DNA of 9,893 bases, taken from positions 1 to 9,893 of the forward strand of contig JBEPZZ010000064.1 in assembly GCA_041640575.1 (NCBI GenBank). Reading direction: 5' to 3'. The notes beneath the pieces are model-generated. The model was given only the letters and a program-made list of their open reading frames with translations, made no database searches and was not told where the DNA came from. Below are positions 1-9,891 of this stretch, one piece after another. Both the position numbers and the translations under genes were made by a program. This stretch comes from Pseudothermotoga sp. Lineage in GTDB: Bacteria; Thermotogota; Thermotogae; Thermotogales; DSM-5069. The stretch's first letter is position 1; every line of letters starts with the position of its first letter.

Positions 1-1
1 G

Positions 2-133
2 ACATTGAAACCCAGAAGGCTCAAAATATGCCGTTGCAATCCGTATGACGTTTGCTGGGGCAAGCGTGGTGCTGATGCAGTTGAGCGCGGCACTATTTCC
101 GCGGAAGAAGCGCTTACTGATATCGCTAGCTGA
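2..133 (+). CDS. Possible 3' end of a convergent gene entering from the left edge (unidentified)
   Basis: Frame +2 is open from the edge: TLKPRRLKICRCNPYDVCWGKRGADAVERGTISAEEALTDIAS, stop at 131-133. No family recognised; may be chance. Confidence 0.2.
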   Translation, partial: TLKPRRLKICRCNPYDVCWGKRGADAVERGTISAEEALTDIAS

Positions 134-246
134 TAATTTCATACATCCAGCATTCGGTAACTTTAAAGAACTAGCTCATCTCAAAAAGCTGTGTTGGCGT
201 GTTTGTGTTTTCTGTGAGGTAATGACGTGCAGAGGAAATTATCCGA

Positions 247-2514
247 CTAATGGATTAATCTCTCTAAACTAGCTGCAGCGCTCTCTAAGTCTATGTGATT
301 GCTACAATATGCAGTGCGCAGCAAGCTCTCAGGCACGTAACGATCATACTTGTTCATTTGCAGCATCTGGCGAGTTAGTTTCTTAATAAGTTCATGTGGT
401 TGCGGGATGTTCCGCAAAATAGCTTTGATTCGTTCCTTGAGAAGGTCGAGTGAGCTGATTTCAGCTTCTAAATAAAATGGATGAGAAAGTATCTTGATAC
501 CACCGTACTCCAACAGCAGCTTGATCGTGTTGATTTCCCGGGTCCCTTGCCACGGAAGCAGCATAAATCGCCCCCCGCCCAAATCTAGAATTGGCTGCGT
601 GGTCATATGGCTGGAATGTGCTAATTCACGGGCAGATTTCAATCGGCGGATGGCTTTGGTATGGAGATAGCTGTAAATGGTATCTTCTTTCAAGATACGG
701 CAAATGCTCTGGGAAATCCGTGTATGGATTGTTCTATCACCTCCAGTCCAATGGGCTTGTGCTTTTCCTCTTACACGTTCAACATGGATGATCTTTTTAT
801 CTTCATCAACATCAATGACTTTCCATGCACGACCAGCTAGCCGAAACCGGTCTCCAACAATGGGAAGCGACTGAACACTACCAATTTCCCGTGTTCCCTC
901 CCGCACCATATAGCCGGTTTCATCTTCAAATGTTGCATAGAAACGGTAATGGTTGACAAGACGTTCACCAGCCCTGCCGATAATCAGTCCACCACCCTCA
1001 ACGCGTTCTAGATGTTCAATTTGAAGAAGGTAACGAAGTAGTTCACGAAAATGGTCGAGAGACACTTGGTTAAAAGGAGACAAAGAGAGAACTTGTTCAG
1101 CCAGCTCAGGTGGTGTAAGCTCTGTTTGGGCCGTAATGATGCTCATTGTCTGGTGGTACAGGATACTTGTTGGTAAAGTGGGAATGTCGGGTGGCTCTAT
1201 CCATTTCTCTTCAATATAGAGTTGGATAATAGCTATTGTCTGTAGCAATCCCCATGGAATACGTTCTCCCAGAGTTGCATTTGGTTTTGGTTCATTCTCC
1301 GAAGAATAAAAAAACATTTTGGCATCGCCACCTCGACGTCCAGATCGACCCAAGCGTTGAACAAAACTGGAAACGGTGTTAGTTGCGTTTAATTGCAGTA
1401 CCTGATCCAAACTGCCTATATCAATACCCAATTCAAGCGTAACGGTCGCTGCAACACATGCCTTTTTGTTCGGGTCACGCATATCTTGTTCAGCGCGTTC
1501 CCGAAGCGTGGCCGAAATACTACCGTGATGGACATAATAACTGTCCTCATCTTCACCTTCCACACCCGCGAGGCGACGCAGGTTATGTATAATTTCCTCA
1601 GCAGCATTACGGCTGTTGGCAAAAATAAGTGTTTTGCGGTTACTATCAACTAATTTCGCCATATGTTGAAACATTTCAGCTGTTTCATCGACTACAGGCT
1701 CATCTGATAGCTCCTCCTCTGATGCAGGCTGTATCGTCAAAGATGCGCTTGCGTCTCCTACATCCGTCTGTGGTGATTCTTCATCAGATCCATCCACCCA
1801 ATCATCTTCTCTTGCTCTGATGAAGTGTTCCAGACCAAGCATGACTTTGCGGCGGCTCACAATATCATTAATATGAGTAACCTGACAATCAGTTCCACCA
1901 GCTAGCCATGCCGATGCTAATGTAGGTTCGCCAAGTGTGGCAGAAAGACCAATGCGACGCGCTGGTCTCGTCTGATATCGAGCCAGTCGCTGTAGTTGGC
2001 ACAAAACCTGCCGTCCTCGATCACTGCCAATGAGCGCATGGACTTCGTCCAGAACGACATAGCGCAAATCACCAAATAAACGGCTCAACTCTGTCTGGCG
2101 ATTAATGAGCATTGCTTCGAGAGATTCGGGGGTAATTTGGAGAATGCCTTGCCCGCTGCGAAGAAATCGTTGTTTTTTGCTCTGTGAAACATCTCCGTGC
2201 CAGCTTTGAACAGGTATGCTGCTGTCTTCTAGTAACCTTTCCAGTCGATGAAATTGATCGTTGATAAGCGCTTTGAGCGGGCCAATATACATTGCACCAA
2301 TTGATGACGATGGACGCTCAAACAGATCTGTCAGTATCGGCAAGAATGCAGCTTCAGTTTTGCCGCTGGCTGTTCCACTTGTAATCAAGACATGGTTTGG
2401 CGTGTCAAGGATGGCGCTGATGGCATCAACCTGTATGGGACGCAATTCCTCCCATTTTTCTCGGTAGATGAAATCCTGTATGAACGGAGCCAAGCGATAA
2501 AACGGATTCGTCAT
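247..2514 (-). CDS. sngC: Lhr-like DEAD/DEAH-box SF2 helicase, Shango SngC-like (755 aa)
   Basis: Full SF2 motif set: Q motif WEELRPIQ, I SGTASGKT, Ia PLKALINDQ, Ib ITPESL, II VVLDEVH, III GLSAT, IV LIFANSR, HHGS, V ATVTLELGIDIG, VI QRLGRSGRR. The ATG overlaps the upstream ATPase stop (ATGA at 2511-2514). The sngC symbol rests on context (downstream of DUF2791-like and TerB_N/C-like genes). Confidence 0.9.
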   Translation of the reverse strand: MTNPFYRLAPFIQDFIYREKWEELRPIQVDAISAILDTPNHVLITSGTASGKTEAAFLPILTDLFERPSSSIGAMYIGPLKALINDQFHRLERLLEDSSIPVQSWHGDVSQSKKQRFLRSGQGILQITPESLEAMLINRQTELSRLFGDLRYVVLDEVHALIGSDRGRQVLCQLQRLARYQTRPARRIGLSATLGEPTLASAWLAGGTDCQVTHINDIVSRRKVMLGLEHFIRAREDDWVDGSDEESPQTDVGDASASLTIQPASEEELSDEPVVDETAEMFQHMAKLVDSNRKTLIFANSRNAAEEIIHNLRRLAGVEGEDEDSYYVHHGSISATLRERAEQDMRDPNKKACVAATVTLELGIDIGSLDQVLQLNATNTVSSFVQRLGRSGRRGGDAKMFFYSSENEPKPNATLGERIPWGLLQTIAIIQLYIEEKWIEPPDIPTLPTSILYHQTMSIITAQTELTPPELAEQVLSLSPFNQVSLDHFRELLRYLLQIEHLERVEGGGLIIGRAGERLVNHYRFYATFEDETGYMVREGTREIGSVQSLPIVGDRFRLAGRAWKVIDVDEDKKIIHVERVRGKAQAHWTGGDRTIHTRISQSICRILKEDTIYSYLHTKAIRRLKSARELAHSSHMTTQPILDLGGGRFMLLPWQGTREINTIKLLLEYGGIKILSHPFYLEAEISSLDLLKERIKAILRNIPQPHELIKKLTRQMLQMNKYDRYVPESLLRTAYCSNHIDLESAAASLERLIH

Positions 2515-3878
2515 AACTCGAAGCTCTTGTAAGGTGATGCTGCGCTATCATCTTCATCGACTATCTCAGTTTCTGCTGTGACGGCTTCAGGATCACGTTC
2601 TACCCGTGAGGGTGTGAAGTCTTTATCAGCGACAACACCATCAAAAGATAAATCGGAATTTTGATACAATACATTTAATACTGCAATGAAATCCCGAACA
2701 ATCTCACGAGGCGTAAGTCTTTGCTCAGCGCCTAAGCGCTTACGAACCTCGTTAAGAAAAAACTCGATCTGCTTGTCTGTAACCGCGGATGTGTAAGAAT
2801 AGTGCAAAGCATGAATTCCACGGATACGTTGAAGAAGCACGAAAATTTCTTCAGGAGTCAGTGGTTCCAGCCGGAGTAATGGCCCTGAAAGATCCCGAAG
2901 ACCATTACGAGCGAAGCGGCTTTCCTCCAGTCGGGTGCGCAGCGCCTCGTAACTGAACAAACCGCGTCGAGTGTCCTCAACCATTTGAGGGGTCGCTCCC
3001 AAGATAACGCCGAGGTATTGAGCCTTTCCCTGCATTATATCGTTGAAAATTGACAGTAACCGTTCGTAGTTGTTATTTCGCGATGCTGTATGGCTGATCT
3101 TGTAAAGGTTGACAGCTTCGTCGATAAAGATTACAAGCCCTTTGTAGCCAATATCTTTCACAAAATGCGCGAGCAGCTTGATGTAGTCATACCAAGAAGA
3201 GTCCTCGATGATGACACGAACTCCAAGTGCCTCACGTGCTTCACCCTTGGTGCTGTACTCTCCGCGTAGCCAACGCATTGCCGCCGCTTTTTTTGTATCA
3301 TCTCCGCTCCGGTGTCCATGCCAATAAGCTAAAATGACTGTCGAAAAATCGAAGCCATGAACCATCCCTTCCATTTGATTAACTGTCGCACGGATACGAC
3401 TATCGACAGCTGATTCAAACTTGGGATCATTAGGCTGAATACCATCGTCTTGAATGACCAGTTGTTGGAGATCACTGATCCAACGTTCCAGTAAGGCACT
3501 AAAAGCACCACCATCAGAGCGGACTTTTGTCGCTGCATTGGTTAGCAACTCACGGTAGAGATTAAGTCCCTGATTCTTGGTTCCGGTCAAGCGTGCTTCT
3601 GGGCTGAGATCAGCGTCCATCACAACAAAGTTGCGCTGTAATGCGTAGTTACGAATTAGTTGGCACAGGAAGCTTTTCCCTGAGCCATAACGTCCTAGGA
3701 TCATTCGAAAGCTCGCACCACCTTCAGAAACAATATCATCAATATCTCTAAGCAGCACCTCAATCTCAGATTTACGCCCTACAGCGATATGTTCGAGACC
3801 AGTACGCGGGACAACACCGGCACTCAGCGAGTGAATGATGGCAGCCGAGACGCGTTTCGGCATTGTCATTGAAGTCAT
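2511..3878 (-). CDS. sngB: DUF2791 / BrxD-like P-loop ATPase, Shango SngB-like (455 aa)
   Basis: N-terminal SLSAGVVPRTGLEHIAVGR, Walker A GRYGSGKS, Walker B LVIFIDEA, WLRGE and RGLFSYEALRTRL segments typical of DUF2791 ATPases. SD-like GGGGAG lies 6 nt upstream of the ATG. Coupled to the helicase by an ATGA overlap. Confidence 0.88.
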   Translation of the reverse strand: MTSMTMPKRVSAAIIHSLSAGVVPRTGLEHIAVGRKSEIEVLLRDIDDIVSEGGASFRMILGRYGSGKSFLCQLIRNYALQRNFVVMDADLSPEARLTGTKNQGLNLYRELLTNAATKVRSDGGAFSALLERWISDLQQLVIQDDGIQPNDPKFESAVDSRIRATVNQMEGMVHGFDFSTVILAYWHGHRSGDDTKKAAAMRWLRGEYSTKGEAREALGVRVIIEDSSWYDYIKLLAHFVKDIGYKGLVIFIDEAVNLYKISHTASRNNNYERLLSIFNDIMQGKAQYLGVILGATPQMVEDTRRGLFSYEALRTRLEESRFARNGLRDLSGPLLRLEPLTPEEIFVLLQRIRGIHALHYSYTSAVTDKQIEFFLNEVRKRLGAEQRLTPREIVRDFIAVLNVLYQNSDLSFDGVVADKDFTPSRVERDPEAVTAETEIVDEDDSAASPYKSFEL

Positions 3879-3884
3879 TTGTAA

Positions 3885-3890
3885 CTCCCC
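3885..3890 (-). promoter_or_regulatory. Shine-Dalgarno GGGGAG for the DUF2791-like ATPase
   Basis: Lies in the 16-bp gap; 6-nt spacer to ATG at 3878. Confidence 0.65.
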
Positions 3891-3894
3891 TAAG

Positions 3895-6800
3895 TCAGTT
3901 TTGGTCGACGTCTGTACTTGTCGGATCGATCTTTGAGACTAGCGCTTGCCTGAGAAAATAACTCAGTAATGGACGATATTCTTCTGTGACGATTAGGTGT
4001 TCATTCTCGATACGTATCAATTGATCGCCGAGAATATCAAGTGAACGATTGTTGAGGTCGTCTAGAATGACGTTCAAGAACTGCCCCTGTAAAATGCTAT
4101 GAAAGTCAGATTCGTGCTGTTCCCAACCAGACTGCTTAAGTAATACCAGTATTTTTATGGCTGTTTCATCAGATGACAGCACATCAAGGAGACCTTGAAG
4201 TATTTTCTCGGACGAGTCGGGTATTTCTTGAGGGCTGTCGATCATGATTTCTTCTGAGACTGAAGACGATGAAGTCGCATCTTCTGTATTTAAGCCAACT
4301 GGCATTTCCTTGCTTTCGCCAACTGCTAGCAACCTCTCGCGCACAGCCTCTGACTGAGCTATCAAGTTATTAACCAAAGTGTAGTCGATAGTCATGTTTT
4401 CGTTATAAGACATGACAATTGTGTTACAGTTAGGATAATTCGTATTGAGCCAGTTGAGCGTCCAGTCATCTTGAGTGAAGAGAATGAACTGCATGTTAGA
4501 AGATTGATTAATTAAATAGGTCAAAATATTAACTTTGCGATTACGATCACAGTGTACAAATGGATCGTCCAACAGCATCGGTAGCGGCTCAGCTGATTGG
4601 CTCATCAACTGTGCAATACTAAACCGTAGGAGGAGATACACCAGATCGCGTGTGCCCGTGCTTAGTTGATCGACGTAAACCCACTGTTGGGTTTCAGGGG
4701 CAAGTAATCTAACAATAAGCGTCTCAGGATCAACGAGACTTTCAGTATAACGTCCTCCAGTGGCGTGGCTCAGACCACTATTCAGATAAGCTTGCAAACG
4801 AGGTGTAAATTGCTTCTGAAAAGTTGTGGATGCTTTCGCCAGTTCAGTCTGGGCTGTTTGCAGAGCTTCACCGAACCATTCCAGCCTTTTTAGTTCGGCA
4901 GTAGCCTCAGCATACTCTTCAAGGAGGCTTGCAAGATCAATCATGCTCTCTGACGCCTGTTTGGCTTCATTTGTCAGCATGACTTGTCTTTGCTTCATAT
5001 CTTGAATTTGTTGTTGTAATTTCTCGACTATGCTTTGGTAGTAATCGGTTGCTTCAACAGGCTTTAAAGATTCTGCATCAGGATTTTGATCGACAAGTGT
5101 TTGGAGTTGGCGTTCCAAATCTTCACGTTGTTTGGTTAGTTTATCAGGTTGGAAGGGAAATTCTTGGAGACGCCTCTCAGCCACCCGTGCCTCACGATCT
5201 GCGTTCTGCCAAGCAACATAGTTTTCGCGTTCAGATTTGTAATGCTCTAATTTTTCTTCCCAGCTCAGAGTGTCGTTGATTTTCGCCTCTTTATACAGTT
5301 CATGCAAATTTTGAAGAACTTGCTCATACTCCTCATTTTTGCGTCGCCTTTTAGCATCCTCATCAGCAGCATCCTTAATTTGAGTCTCAACATCTGAGAG
5401 ACGTTGCCTCAGCATATGGATTTGTTGATGCTCAACCTCAATGTCTTGGTCATGTCGAATTCCTTCAGGTAGAATGTCGTTAAGTTGTTCTTCCAAAGAT
5501 TTGAGTAACCTTTCAGCTTCCTGTGAAGCTGTTCTCGCCTCTTCCAGATTGTGACTAGCAACTTCGCTTGCTGTGACATTTTTCAGGTATTCGTCAATTT
5601 TAGCCGAAGCCTGCTCAAAGATTTTTGCTTCAATGGGAATATCGTCAACGCATAGTTCACGTCTCACTCTAGCTTCAACATCATTTTTTAACTGTTCAGA
5701 CTTCTTTACTGATTCTTGTGCATTCTTCCACTGAGTGTAAATGGGTAGCAAGTCGTTATATATAGCTATCTCACTCGGCGCAGAATTCTCTGTTTTGGCT
5801 TTGCGCTTTAGTGGATTGCATCCCTTTTTGTGGGGAACATCTAGAGGAGTATTTTTTAGGGCAAGAAATGCTGATTCTTCGATGTTTGCCCGTTTCCATT
5901 CTGCTGTATAAAACTCTACATCTGCCAATGATTTAGCTACATCTTTTTGAGCCGATTCATACAACTGCTGAAGTTTAGCCAGAGAGCTATGACCCATTTC
6001 GACATATCTGAATTCGCTTTGTAGCCTCGCCACAACGGATTGGGCTTTATCGACTTCAGCTTGAAGTTTTTCAACTTGTCTGTGAGCAGCCTCTACGGCT
6101 TGAGTGGCTTTTTCAATTTCCTTTTTCTTGGCGCTAATCCTATGAATAAGTTCAACTGGTAGGCTTTTGAAATTCTCAATTTGGGCAGTTAGATTCTGTT
6201 GTTCTTTTCTGAGTATCTCAAGTTTGTTTGATAGATTTGGACGTTCTGCGTCAGCCTCCAATGAAATGCGTCTAGCATCAAGGTCTAGTAATTGCTCGTA
6301 GATGTCATAGCGAAAATCACTCCACTTCTGAAGATCAGTGACTTTCCGTTTGGCTTCATCAGCTTCTAGTTGCAAGCTTGCAATGCGGTTGAGGGTTTCG
6401 GTAATATCGCTTAGCCTAGATTTCAATAAAAGTATTTGAGAGTCGGAATATTGCTTTTCTAACTGGGTTATATCCGCTTCACTCGTATTGACAGACGTTA
6501 AAACTTCCCAACTTTTTTTACGAGTTGCTCTTGCATCGTCTATGGCTTTTTTGAGTTGTTCAACACGTTTTTTAGTTACTGCAAGAGGTTTAGAGTGGGC
6601 ACGGGGTGTGCCTACTTTTTGCTTGAGGGTTATTTCGAGAAGTTCAAGGGCTTTATTTACAGTAAATCCATCTTTGGCCATTGTTGATGAAAGCCGCATA
6701 ATGGTTTCTGCAATCGGAATCGCGGATTGTTCAAGCAAAGCGAGTTCAGACTGCCGAACTATACAAACGTTTTCGAAGACATACTTGCCAATACCAAGTT

Positions 6801-7191
6801 GCTCCTCTGCAAAATAGAGCCGTCCGTGACTCTCAGCTCGAAACGTATCTGTAAGATTTCGCTGGTCGGACATTCGTATGAGAGTGGTTGAGATTTCTGG
6901 GGCAAAAGTACGTCGAATCTCAAAGGCTTCCCCGTTACTTAATCTGTATTTCAGTGTACCGCCGAAAGCTTCCATGTGAGACCATGGTTTATATCGATTG
7001 AGGGTATCATGATCCTTGGACGATATACGTCCAGTATCGAAAAAGCCGTAAAGCATTATTGCAACGGCTTCCATCAACGTTGATTTTCCTACTTCGTTTG
7101 GGCCATATACAAGATTCAAGCCTGATTTAAAGTCAAACGAACGATCTACCAGTTGGCGAAATCCCAACAGATCAATCTGGGTCAATTGCAT
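3895..7191 (-). CDS. Rad50/SbcC/YhaN-like coiled-coil ABC-ATPase fused to a C-terminal TerB_C-like domain (1098 aa)
   Basis: Walker A GPNEVGKST, Q-loop region CIVRQSEL, about 600 aa of heptad-rich helical sequence, signature QLSTGTRD, Walker B/D-loop PMLLDDPFVHCD. The last ~166 aa (3895-4395) are homologous to the C-terminus of the ORF at 8503-9891. SD GAGGTGAT upstream; 20-bp overlap with the phosphoesterase gene. Confidence 0.88.
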   Translation of the reverse strand: MQLTQIDLLGFRQLVDRSFDFKSGLNLVYGPNEVGKSTLMEAVAIMLYGFFDTGRISSKDHDTLNRYKPWSHMEAFGGTLKYRLSNGEAFEIRRTFAPEISTTLIRMSDQRNLTDTFRAESHGRLYFAEEQLGIGKYVFENVCIVRQSELALLEQSAIPIAETIMRLSSTMAKDGFTVNKALELLEITLKQKVGTPRAHSKPLAVTKKRVEQLKKAIDDARATRKKSWEVLTSVNTSEADITQLEKQYSDSQILLLKSRLSDITETLNRIASLQLEADEAKRKVTDLQKWSDFRYDIYEQLLDLDARRISLEADAERPNLSNKLEILRKEQQNLTAQIENFKSLPVELIHRISAKKKEIEKATQAVEAAHRQVEKLQAEVDKAQSVVARLQSEFRYVEMGHSSLAKLQQLYESAQKDVAKSLADVEFYTAEWKRANIEESAFLALKNTPLDVPHKKGCNPLKRKAKTENSAPSEIAIYNDLLPIYTQWKNAQESVKKSEQLKNDVEARVRRELCVDDIPIEAKIFEQASAKIDEYLKNVTASEVASHNLEEARTASQEAERLLKSLEEQLNDILPEGIRHDQDIEVEHQQIHMLRQRLSDVETQIKDAADEDAKRRRKNEEYEQVLQNLHELYKEAKINDTLSWEEKLEHYKSERENYVAWQNADREARVAERRLQEFPFQPDKLTKQREDLERQLQTLVDQNPDAESLKPVEATDYYQSIVEKLQQQIQDMKQRQVMLTNEAKQASESMIDLASLLEEYAEATAELKRLEWFGEALQTAQTELAKASTTFQKQFTPRLQAYLNSGLSHATGGRYTESLVDPETLIVRLLAPETQQWVYVDQLSTGTRDLVYLLLRFSIAQLMSQSAEPLPMLLDDPFVHCDRNRKVNILTYLINQSSNMQFILFTQDDWTLNWLNTNYPNCNTIVMSYNENMTIDYTLVNNLIAQSEAVRERLLAVGESKEMPVGLNTEDATSSSSVSEEIMIDSPQEIPDSSEKILQGLLDVLSSDETAIKILVLLKQSGWEQHESDFHSILQGQFLNVILDDLNNRSLDILGDQLIRIENEHLIVTEEYRPLLSYFLRQALVSKIDPTSTDVDQN
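3974..3996. repeat. 23-bp perfect direct repeat, copy 1 (cgatattcttctgtgacgattag)
   Basis: Identical to 8531-8553. Encodes LIVTEEY(R) on the minus strand, inside the duplicated TerB_C-like domain. Confidence 0.95.
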
Positions 7192-8266
7192 TTGTTATCA
7201 CCTCTACACCATCTAGTGCTTGCATAGCGACATGCAAAGCATTATGAATCCGAGACCGATCTTCTGGATTTGTTTCTTGCAAACAATCCAAGAATTGCTT
7301 TGCAAGAAAGCCGCGTACAGTCGGTTCCTTTGCAAGCATTTCTAGATCATAAGGAACGTTTAATCGTGTGACAAATCTTATAGGTTCTTCAATTATTTCA
7401 CCCAAGTAAGAAACATCAATTGCACATTGCGGTGCACCTGTGAGCATAATTGTAAGATGGTGTGGCTGTTTCATATGGTTTCTAATCACTTTACGAACCT
7501 TTTCTTCAACACAACCCATATCTTTGCATCCCGATAAATCCACATCTACTGAGTAATACTGCCAACGGCCAGTTTGGATAAATTCAGTCCGAGTGTTACC
7601 CTGCTCGACAGTAATTAATGTAATGCCATGCTCTCTACTATCAGCTGCAGGTTCAATAGATTCAGGACTGCCTGACATGACACCGTTTGGGAAAGTATGG
7701 TGTTGGTGCTCTCCACCAAGAAGAGCAAAATCCATACCACTGTGTTTTAGTATCTCCTGATTGAGAAAAGAATCATTTGGATTTTGAGCACTAGGATAAT
7801 GAAGAAGGAGCAGATTTATTCCTTCGTTTCGCTCCCACGAACCTAGAAGATCAGTCAAGGGTATATATGGATAAGCCGCTCCCCACACAGTCATTTCAGG
7901 ATTCAATCGGAATGGACTCAGTGTTTGGGTAGTAAAGATATGAACATTGGCTGGGAAACGCCAACGAGAATATAAAGAGTCTTGGCCGTATGTATCTGCG
8001 CTTCCGGGGGAAATTAGCACAGGTATTGGAGCAATTTGTTCGAACTGCTCTGAAAGGATCTTCAAAGTTGATGGAGTAACCGTATCTTGTTCAAACAAAT
8101 CACCCGCAATCGTCACCACATCGACGGTTCTGTCAATCGCAATGTCAAAAATTAGTTTTAGAACCTGAATTAGTCCCTCACGTCGAGTCTTTCCAACTGA
8201 AGGAGTTAGGCCAGCATCTGCAAACGAACGATCTAGATGTAGATCTGCAAAATGTAAAATTTTCAA
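7172..8266 (-). CDS. Mre11/SbcD/YhaO-like calcineurin-type metallophosphoesterase with degenerate active-site motifs (364 aa)
   Basis: MKILHFADLHLD (motif I), AGDLFE (II), PGSAD (III, canonical GNHD), LLLLH (IV), ALLGGEH (V, canonical GHxH), SGSPE. TTG start with SD GAGGTG 8 nt upstream. Lies directly upstream of the Rad50-like gene, as in sbcD-sbcC and yhaO-yhaN pairs. Confidence 0.87.
   Translation of the reverse strand: MKILHFADLHLDRSFADAGLTPSVGKTRREGLIQVLKLIFDIAIDRTVDVVTIAGDLFEQDTVTPSTLKILSEQFEQIAPIPVLISPGSADTYGQDSLYSRWRFPANVHIFTTQTLSPFRLNPEMTVWGAAYPYIPLTDLLGSWERNEGINLLLLHYPSAQNPNDSFLNQEILKHSGMDFALLGGEHQHHTFPNGVMSGSPESIEPAADSREHGITLITVEQGNTRTEFIQTGRWQYYSVDVDLSGCKDMGCVEEKVRKVIRNHMKQPHHLTIMLTGAPQCAIDVSYLGEIIEEPIRFVTRLNVPYDLEMLAKEPTVRGFLAKQFLDCLQETNPEDRSRIHNALHVAMQALDGVEVITNAIDPD
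7197..7204 (-). promoter_or_regulatory. Shine-Dalgarno GAGGTGAT for the Rad50-like gene
   Basis: gaggtgataacaaATG, inside the 3' end of the phosphoesterase gene. Confidence 0.7.
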
Positions 8267-8274
8267 ATCCTTCG

Positions 8275-8280
8275 CACCTC
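8275..8280 (-). promoter_or_regulatory. Shine-Dalgarno GAGGTG for the metallophosphoesterase
   Basis: 8-nt spacer to TTG at 8266. Confidence 0.7.
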
Positions 8281-8336
8281 AAGCACGTTTTCCAACCGAG
8301 TCTTAGTCTTCTGAAGATAGATCACCTATCTCGACG

Positions 8337-8365
8337 ATATTTCCTAATAACTATATTTCCTAATA
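8337..8365. repeat. Tandem 13-bp direct repeat atatttcctaata x2 (period 16 bp)
   Basis: Exact copies at 8337-8349 and 8353-8365, separated by act, in the 236-bp intergenic region. Confidence 0.9.
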
Positions 8366-8378
8366 CTAAGGAACGCAA
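8350..8378 (-). promoter_or_regulatory. Candidate sigma70-type promoter for the phosphoesterase-to-helicase genes
   Basis: Minus strand TTGCGT (8378-8373), 17-nt spacer, TATAGT (8355-8350). About 83 nt upstream of the TTG start and overlapped by the 13-bp repeats. Consensus match only. Confidence 0.45.
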
Positions 8379-8502
8379 ATTCGTTAATTTTGTTAATCAA
8401 CAAATCAGACGTAGTGCGTACACTTTGTGCAATACCATCCAAGCGCATCATGACATCATCTTTCAATAGCAAAGCGTTGACTCAATGTCCAGCATGAGTG
8501 GG

Positions 8503-9891
8503 CTAATTAAGTAAATGCTCGATTTCACCTCGATATTCTTCTGTGACGATTAGTTCATCATCTTCAATAAAGATCAACTGATCGCCTAGTAATTCAATAG
8601 CGCGTTCGTTGATACGATCAAGCACAACGTTCAGAAACTCACCATTCAAGATATTCTGAGCAAGATCACTGCGCATCTTCCAATTATTTGTCCGTAAATT
8701 ACGTAGCAGATTAATTGCTACCTTGCTTCCTCTTATGACTTTGGCAACTCCTTCAAATTCAGTTGGCAAATGAACAGGCGTATCTGGAGAACGCTCAGTG
8801 TCTAAAACAACAGGAAGGCGTTCATCAGCTTTTTCTAGGCCGTTTTCAGTCACCAGAGCCTTGTTGGCAGTAATCTCACTTTCTTCGTTTACCTGAAGGC
8901 GATTACGGACAGTATCTGACTCTAAGGTAAGTAATTCAACCTTGGCATAATCAATAACCAAGGGCTTATCTGTGGTAATTGTTATTCTATCCTCTATAGA
9001 TGCATCTGATTGTTTACGGATTTTCTGGTCTTGGACAGGGAAGGCTGAATCTAGAATGGCTATCCATTCCGACGGTAATTCGATGCCTTTTAATGTTCCT
9101 CGATAGTTTTGCTGACGTCTCAATCGGTTTTCGATATATTTCAAAGTCGAGGCCATAGCGTTACGCAGATCACTGGCGTTGAGCCAAGCTGGCACATTGG
9201 CAACAGTGATCATTCCATGCTTTCCTTCATAAATAGCTCCTGTAAATGGATAGCGTTTGATTTGGTGTACATCGACCGGACGGTAATAGTTGAACAAAGT
9301 TTTTCCATGCTTTTGACGGAGATATTTATCAATGATATCTAATCCGCGACGGAGTTCCCGATCTATAACTCCGTTGTTATTATGCTGTTGATAGAATTTA
9401 CTATTTGTGTATTTATGACCGCTGATTAATTCGAGCATATCACTAGATAAGTGCATTAAGTTTGCACTACCATCAGACAATAAAGCTTCTATCAAAAGAT
9501 TCCGATCAGTTAGGTGTCCACCGCGTTTAATGGCATAGGAATACCAGTTCATCGGTGTCTGCGGTAGTCTATAGACAACTATAAAGTCTGCTAACCAGTC
9601 GATAAGGTAGCTATCCAGTTCTGGATGCTTTACTCGATAGCGCCTCCAGATATTTGCTAGATGCTCAAAAGCATCCTCCGCTGAGTCAAACCCAATAAGA
9701 TGTATAACCTCGTAAACGTGCAGAAATATATAACTTAGGTCAGTGGGTAAATAGCTGCTGTGCCTTACTTGTGAGCGCCAGTAAAAATACCATTTGCGTT
9801 GAGCACTATTCATGGACTCATATGTGGGCCAGTATTGCTTAAAAGGCGCTGGGTCAGCCTGTCGTTCAGTCGTATTAACAAATTTTTTCGC
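8503..9891 (-). CDS. sngA: TerB_N + TerB_C domain protein, Shango SngA-like (5'-partial; frame open to the window edge)
   Basis: The frame stays open upstream of the tracked Met at 9813 and reads AKKFVNTTERQADPAPFKQYWPTYESMNSAQRKWYFYWR. The YWPtY...Q...Y..W segment and TDLSYIFLHVYE are typical of TerB_N. C-terminal IDY..V..L..ES..VR.RL and LDRINERAIELLGDQLI are typical of TerB_C. The true start is outside the window. Confidence 0.85.
   Translation of the reverse strand, partial: AKKFVNTTERQADPAPFKQYWPTYESMNSAQRKWYFYWRSQVRHSSYLPTDLSYIFLHVYEVIHLIGFDSAEDAFEHLANIWRRYRVKHPELDSYLIDWLADFIVVYRLPQTPMNWYSYAIKRGGHLTDRNLLIEALLSDGSANLMHLSSDMLELISGHKYTNSKFYQQHNNNGVIDRELRRGLDIIDKYLRQKHGKTLFNYYRPVDVHQIKRYPFTGAIYEGKHGMITVANVPAWLNASDLRNAMASTLKYIENRLRRQQNYRGTLKGIELPSEWIAILDSAFPVQDQKIRKQSDASIEDRITITTDKPLVIDYAKVELLTLESDTVRNRLQVNEESEITANKALVTENGLEKADERLPVVLDTERSPDTPVHLPTEFEGVAKVIRGSKVAINLLRNLRTNNWKMRSDLAQNILNGEFLNVVLDRINERAIELLGDQLIFIEDDELIVTEEYRGEIEHLLN
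8531..8553. repeat. 23-bp perfect direct repeat, copy 2 (cgatattcttctgtgacgattag)
   Basis: Identical to 3974-3996; offset 4557 bp. Confidence 0.95.

Follow-up and report, generated by a model that had tools for sequence, protein, structure and literature searches.

Contig C64 (JBEPZZ010000064.1), analysed here over its whole length of 9893 nucleotides (nt) and hereafter called the window, is a five-gene variant of the anti-phage system Shango in which a Rad50-like ATPase ends in a TerB_C domain, as does the Shango protein SngA. The contig belongs to a 1.97-Mb genome bin of 123 contigs assigned to Pseudothermotoga sp. The window has all its large open reading frames (ORFs) on the minus strand, tightly packed into one operon with the gene order sngA, sbcD-like, rad50-like::TerB_C, sngB and sngC. 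Sequence comparison confirmed that the last ~165 residues of the Rad50-like protein are a real TerB_C domain, paralogous to the copy in SngA. In the reading that we favour with moderate confidence, TerB_C was captured once in this five-gene variant and would couple inputs to a motor composed of SngB and SngC, with the Rad50-like/SbcD-like complex as a second input arm.

The C-Terminal Tail of the Rad50-Like Protein Is a TerB_C Domain

The Rad50-like ORF (3895–7191, minus strand) comprises 1098 codons. Its larger part (4417–7191) encodes an ATP-binding cassette (ABC) ATPase of the Rad50/SbcC type, composed of an N-lobe, a coiled coil of ~520 amino acids (aa) and a C-lobe (Pfam AAA_23, AAA_27 and SMC_N; Rad50 heads in the PDB at 2.9e-8). 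The remainder, aa 926–1098 (3895–4416), is the tail, identified by alignment with SngA, by Pfam TerB_C and by an AlphaFold2 model. Alignment of the last 181 aa to the SngA C-terminus gives 35% identity (57 of 164 positions; E 9e-24) and a score of 90.5 bits, versus 22.3 bits for the best of 200 shuffled tails. When the tail alone is compared to Pfam TerB_C (PF15615), it reaches 27.4 bits (E 4.5e-6) over profile positions 15–147 of 148, passing the gathering cut-off of 26.3 bits, and a profile scan of the whole genome places TerB_C at 3964–4401 with 26.8 bits. The initial annotation of this DNA, made from its letters only, had described a second SngA-type TerB_C copy on the Rad50-like ATPase, a description that both the alignment and the profile bear out. 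Its counts were found to be exact as well, namely 27 out of 41 identities between 3973–4095 and 8530–8652 (and 10 out of 20 in the IDY helix) and spans of 139 and 142 codons from IDY to EEYR. Only the start of IDY needed correction, from aa 933 to aa 935 (nt 4389).

With the tail as query, an exhaustive phmmer search of 1.84 billion representative sequences returned 90 matches, including the query itself. At the thresholds used, Pfam TerB_C is present in 82 and TerB_N in 59 of the 89 non-self matches, and many matches contain two TerB_C stretches. The invariant residue N122 of TerB_C and the nearly invariant residues D11, L29, W98, D131, L133, E137 and R148, as derived from a 60-sequence alignment, are all kept in the tail. 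Matches of ~1200 aa were considered as possible SMC fusions and rejected, as all 28 are TerB_N and TerB_C proteins with long N-terminal extensions. Three complete proteins (P0073, P0075 and P0093) combine a coiled-coil N-terminal part with a C-terminal TerB_C-like region and lack TerB_N.

The Fusion Is Continuous Across Assemblies

The fused form is rare in the databases searched, where it occurs in one close clade and two divergent lineages. Four clusters (P0002–P0005) are 75–84% identical to the Rad50-like protein, have lengths of 1097–1102 aa and show an uninterrupted tail. P0216 (NCBI MFO7322387.1; 1088 aa) derives from a metagenome-assembled genome named as Chloroflexota and occurs on 33 contigs; its identity to the Rad50-like protein is 45% when 98% of the query is aligned, versus 39% within the tail alone (E 5e-32). 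P0008 is a contig-end fragment of 371 aa, 50% identical over aa 718–1082, that covers Walker B and the signature motif as well as the tail. A scan of viral contigs revealed no relative, and nothing was found in a scan of genome contigs with a single-protein query.

Two further loci supply gene context. The metagenome locus L003 shows the complete five-gene order of the window. L014, on a contig labelled Candidatus Saccharibacteria and 91% identical, contains sngA, sbcD-like and rad50-like, arranged as in the window, before the contig ends. No stop codon, which the initial annotation had named as a sign against the fusion, and no frameshift occurs at the ATPase–tail junction in P0002–P0005, P0216, P0008 or L003, and the ORF is also continuous in the contig-end piece of L014. 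The junction region that had been singled out for verification (4395–4440) is bridged in assembled Logan contigs, rather than raw reads, of four hot-spring metagenome runs from two studies, in which the only indels of the tail measure 6 nt and 9 nt, both in frame. An assembly or frameshift artefact joining two separate genes for the ATPase and TerB_C is therefore ruled out within the limits of assembled data: continuity in the window, L003, the L014 piece, six clusters of other assemblies and the contigs of four runs leaves this explanation with a negligible probability.

Structure, Selection and Origin of the Tail

An AlphaFold2 model of the tail was built on the 60-sequence alignment. An amphipathic helix (residues 12–32; ~4321–4383) is followed by a disordered acidic linker (residues 37–61; ~4234–4308) and a core (residues 68–162; ~3931–4215) with a predicted local distance difference test score (pLDDT) above 90, in the order helix-helix-strand-helix-helix-hairpin-helix. 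The top structural matches of this core are winged-helix proteins of the ArsR/SmtB type (Z 9.1; root-mean-square deviation of 2.9 Å over 88 residues), where it should be noted that Z values of 8–9 are common for the winged-helix fold and indicate a shared fold, not a function. A Foldseek search against the PDB gave nothing at E ≤ 0.001, the best match being a MarR-family protein at E 0.03. The winged-helix core is acidic in all 60 aligned sequences (isoelectric point 4.05–4.81; median net charge −14 over 98 aa), making classical DNA binding unlikely. Metal chelation by conserved acidic residues was reportedly proposed when TerB_C was defined.

The domain occurs in a longer form in SngA. Canonical SngA proteins comprise two tandem winged-helix units, of which the Rad50-like tail corresponds to the first only. 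The model of the C-terminus of L003 SngA shows a tail-like unit and then a second, shorter winged-helix-like unit. A wide structural search with the two-unit model of SngA retrieved no tandem winged-helix template; its matches span one unit each. The second unit is intact in L003 and L014. Compared to these two loci, it has decayed in the window: a stop occurs right after ...EHLLN, ~30 codons are deleted, and there is another stop as well as a frameshift, so that SngA of the window ends after a single TerB_C unit.

Selection was estimated by the Nei–Gojobori method as omega, the ratio of nonsynonymous to synonymous substitution rates, for one sequence pair (window versus L003). Omega amounts to 0.29 when the tail is taken as a whole; its winged helix has a value of 0.22, its linker ~1.0 and the TerB_C of SngA 0.20. 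For this pair, these values agree with the earlier suggestion that both TerB_C copies are under selection and that the linker is drifting. Among the five genes, constraint is far stronger on SngB (0.075) and SngC (0.092) than on SngA (0.225), the SbcD-like protein (0.248) and the Rad50-like protein (0.170), which fits a fixed motor combined with faster-evolving inputs.

A maximum-likelihood tree was inferred from the helix and winged-helix columns, with six tails included and P0216 left out. The six tails form one clade (support 97/94), nested in a supported clade that contains the cognate SngA. Judged by this topology, the tail is old and was gained once, its source being the first TerB_C unit of a same-subfamily SngA. 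A duplication within the operon is a possible route.

The Rad50-Like ATPase and Its SbcD-Like Partner

In the ATPase head, Walker A reads GPNEVGKS, the variant signature motif LSTGTRD and Walker B MLLDDP, with an Asp in place of the Glu of Rad50. This double Asp is common to the wider ATPase family (pattern PMLLDDPF). In addition, the His of the H-loop is replaced by Gln (FTQD). A motif scan detected no CxxC zinc hook in P0001–P0005 or P0216. A single Cys458 (~5818–5820) lies in KKGC[NK]PL at the midpoint of the coiled coil and is found at position 458 in all five close relatives and P0216. Pfam AAA_27 is matched with 39.7 bits (cut-off 22), but over profile positions 1–54 of 206 only; the distant relatives P0217 and P0235 match positions 1–204.

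Directly upstream, an SbcD/Mre11-like metallophosphoesterase of 364 aa is encoded at 7172–8266 (minus strand; Pfam Metallophos 9.9e-8, and NCBIfam sbcd 5.5e-11, which is below the cut-off of that model). This protein retains motifs I (DLH) and II (GD), but in motif III (aa 87–90; ~7997–8008) GSAD replaces GNHD, SPGSAD being aligned on EGNHD of Pyrococcus furiosus Mre11. The motif III His is gone from all four operon-linked copies examined (GSAD in the window, GRSD in L003, GGAD in L014 and GNSD in P0210), and GNH is kept in 31 of 54 distant relatives. The His of motif III is required for the exonuclease activity of Mre11, and the top PDB match of the SbcD-like protein is the H85S crystal form of P. 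furiosus Mre11, in which the same His is replaced. Judging from these motifs, the nuclease may be attenuated, and a weakened nuclease would fit a sensing rather than a degrading role.

P0210 (715 aa; JGI contig of 10470 nt) is itself a fused protein, in which a full SbcD-like part, 40% identical to that of the window, continues into SngB from about residue 94 of the SngB profile. The Rad50-like gene and the N-terminus of SngB are missing, which gives P0210, from a third lineage, the appearance of a deletion chimera.

The pair of nuclease and ATPase also occurs elsewhere. Conserved C-lobe patterns located 67 loci in species-representative genomes: the tail-bearing L014, L079 and L080 without a tblastn match, and 64 distant loci with 26–43% identity in Hydrogenedentota, Nitrospirales, Actinomycetota and others. 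An SbcD-like gene is located directly upstream in 55 of these 64 loci, and by tblastn none of the 64 has a match to the tail, SngA or SngB. A weak match to SngC (25% identity; E 5e-7) in L017 lies ~2 kb away on the other strand and looks like a generic helicase. In the three C-termini that were read (L015–L017), the protein stops shortly after the ATPase. As the distant pairs lack both the tail and Shango neighbours, we conclude that a free-standing nuclease–ATPase pair was recruited into Shango and acquired TerB_C.

Operon Layout and Host Lineage

PADLOC recognizes Shango in the window with SngA at 2.3e-65, SngB at 4.8e-184 and SngC at 3.8e-236, all on one strand. The sngA gene (8503–9891), whose 5′ end is cut by the contig end, encodes TerB_N (Pfam 2e-28) and one TerB_C unit consisting of helix, linker and winged helix 1; for TerB_C, a score of 26.8 bits is obtained with the C-terminal 160 aa, above the cut-off. 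The decayed remnant of the second winged-helix unit (8267–8502, minus strand), recognized by three-frame translation and by a tblastn search with the tail of L003 SngA, occupies the 236-nt gap between sngA and the sbcD-like gene. The latter overlaps rad50-like by 20 nt. The gene for the BrxD-like ATPase SngB (2511–3878; Pfam BrxC_BrxD 5e-163) starts 16 nt past the stop of rad50-like and overlaps by 4 nt with that for SngC (247–2514), an Lhr/BrxHI-like superfamily 2 helicase (Pfam DEAD and Helicase_C); both are on the minus strand. SngC groups with the BrxHI, DruE and DpdJ helicases. Promoter-like and terminator-like matches in the window do not exceed chance.

Window SngA is 71% identical to the 804-aa SngA of L003. 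In the latter, the region of aa 1–230 (3600–4290, with the same start in L014) opens with hydrophobic stretches, with Kyte–Doolittle values of at least 1.6 at aa 1–43 and 65–88. This composition suggests a putative membrane anchor at the N-terminus of full-length SngA of this clade, in a region located beyond the end of the window.

The operon looks foreign to the bin. In 60 relatives, no homologue was found, only generic P-loop matches, and P0216 as a query yielded no homologue at E ≤ 1e-30 in 150 other genomes of the phylum of the bin. The nearest named relatives of SngB are from Chloroflexota (78–79% identity). Together with the Saccharibacteria label of the 91%-identical contig L014, these results point to horizontal transfer, or else to short contigs having been mis-binned. 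In L003, the stretch upstream of the operon (1–3065) contains a fragment of a DDE_3 transposase as well as a DUF4357 protein that weakly matches GIY-YIG, suggesting a mobile or defence-island setting.

Discussion

The sections of two reports that deal with Shango describe a three-gene anti-phage system of a TerB-like protein, an ATPase and a helicase, with modest to strong protection and a mechanism given as unknown (Millman et al. 2022, 10.1101/2022.05.11.491447; Johnson et al. 2022, 10.1101/2022.11.11.516204). The window resembles this system in the strong PADLOC scores of all three components, in the overlap between sngB and sngC, and in having a TerB_C-coding 3′ end immediately ahead of sngB, the place it also takes in the canonical sngA–sngB arrangement. 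It differs in that the contiguous three-gene layout is not kept: the sbcD-like and rad50-like genes part sngA from sngB in the window, as in L003, and TerB_C occurs twice, on two proteins. The added genes resemble SbcCD/Mre11-Rad50, given the overlap of a phosphoesterase gene with the gene of an ABC ATPase whose head is split by a coiled coil, and the matches to Rad50 heads and Mre11. However, this pair lacks CxxC, has DD instead of DE in Walker B, Gln in the H-loop and GSAD in motif III, and carries the TerB_C tail.

A further SbcCD-like pair is known from Bacillus subtilis, in which the SMC-like SbcE (YhaN) lacks CxxC and adjoins the SbcD-like SbcF (YhaO) in the order yhaO-yhaN-yhaM, according to the part of PMC2811018 that covers these genes. 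The likeness lies in an ATPase without CxxC beside an SbcD-like gene, and in the AAA_27 match at the N-terminus of the Rad50-like protein. On the other hand, that match is confined to profile positions 1–54 of 206, and no Shango genes or TerB_C are reported in that part of the source, a separation made by description and not by direct comparison with YhaN. A literature search on Shango, SngA-C, TerB-C and SbcC retrieved no SbcCD-like insertion, no such architecture and no TerB_C partners; the 2012 paper defining the domain fell outside this search and may list an SMC-type fusion. Anantharaman, Iyer and Aravind are said to have defined TerB-N and TerB-C in that paper.

Several observations lead us to propose that TerB_C would be a coupling module, attaching an input protein to the conserved SngB–SngC ATPase–helicase motor. 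It is the tail of unrelated N-terminal modules (TerB_N, long extensions with TerB_N, coiled-coil proteins and a Rad50-like ATPase), its coding region immediately precedes sngB in canonical operons as well as in variant ones, and constraint is much tighter on the motor genes than on the input genes. The Rad50-like/SbcD-like complex would then serve, next to SngA, as another input arm, which would probably sense or clamp DNA ends or unusual DNA and in which the nuclease would be weakened. Two sensors feeding one motor, as the initial annotation had envisaged, would fit this anatomy. A bolder version, which we put forward tentatively as the less probable one, is that TerB_C may be the universal plug of Shango, wiring any carrier to SngB–SngC, and that Shango of this lineage may be triggered by, or act at, DNA ends or hairpins via the Rad50-like clamp.

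A number of points weigh against the coupling proposal and the evidence underneath it. The Pfam score of the tail exceeds the cut-off of TerB_C by only 1.1 bits, and TerB_C is absent from the Pfam list of the full-length Rad50-like protein at E ≤ 0.01. The canonical linker motif RPxDTPxxLLTDL is kept only partly in the tail (SPQEIPD...); if docking relies on this motif, the tail may have another mode of binding. Information on the gene context of tail-bearing loci comes from the window, L003 and L014 only, and not from P0216 or P0008, the selection estimates depend on one sequence pair, and the tree leaves the branching of the tails relative to the cognate SngA unsettled.

Other roles for the tail can be envisaged. 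TerB_C might be a winged-helix pairing module, by which the tail pairs with the TerB_C of SngA or with a second Rad50-like tail, thus tethering the SbcCD-like complex to SngA. The ArsR/SmtB-type proteins that top the fold matches (Z 9.1) are obligate dimers through helices 1 and 5, and the arrangement of two tandem units in canonical SngA versus one in the tail, with the second unit decayed in window SngA, would suit such pairing. Yet L003 and L014 keep the second unit of SngA and also have the tail, and Z values of this size are, as mentioned, common for the fold; we deem pairing unlikely. An even less likely alternative is that the tail acts in cis, or as a sensor of a small ligand or metal, and regulates the Rad50-like head without bridging to Shango proteins. 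The strongly acidic nature of the domain (median net charge −14 over 98 aa) would agree with this, and kleisins contain winged helices that bind to SMC heads. Nonetheless, TerB_C is also found on TerB_N and coiled-coil proteins devoid of an ATPase head, making a head-specific role unlikely as its ancestral function, and the relatives of the ATPase outside Shango have no tail.

The pair could also be a mere passenger, i.e., a repair or independent defence module, with a tail left over from the recombination by which it entered sngA. The pair does stand alone in 55 of 64 distant loci, and P0210 illustrates that gene-fusing deletions occur at these loci. A leftover is hard to reconcile, however, with a tail that stays in frame at 45–50% divergence, an omega of 0.22 in its folded part, the retention of every nearly invariant TerB_C residue and strain variants with only in-frame tail indels. 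We therefore consider the passenger scenario improbable, more so than a role in cis. Compared to these alternatives, the coupling of inputs to SngB–SngC by a once-captured TerB_C remains the reading that we prefer.

The SngA tail recurs here on an unrelated DNA-end-binding machine of a kind whose mechanism is well understood, which points towards TerB_C being the link between input and motor. The window also exemplifies a defence operon that has recruited a pair of the Mre11/Rad50 type, in which the nuclease motif is changed in all four operon-linked copies examined. In the sections mentioned above, Shango is a validated anti-phage system of which the trigger and assembly are described as unknown. 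If TerB_C does prove to be a universal plug, this variant would offer a first handle on what Shango senses and how its parts assemble.

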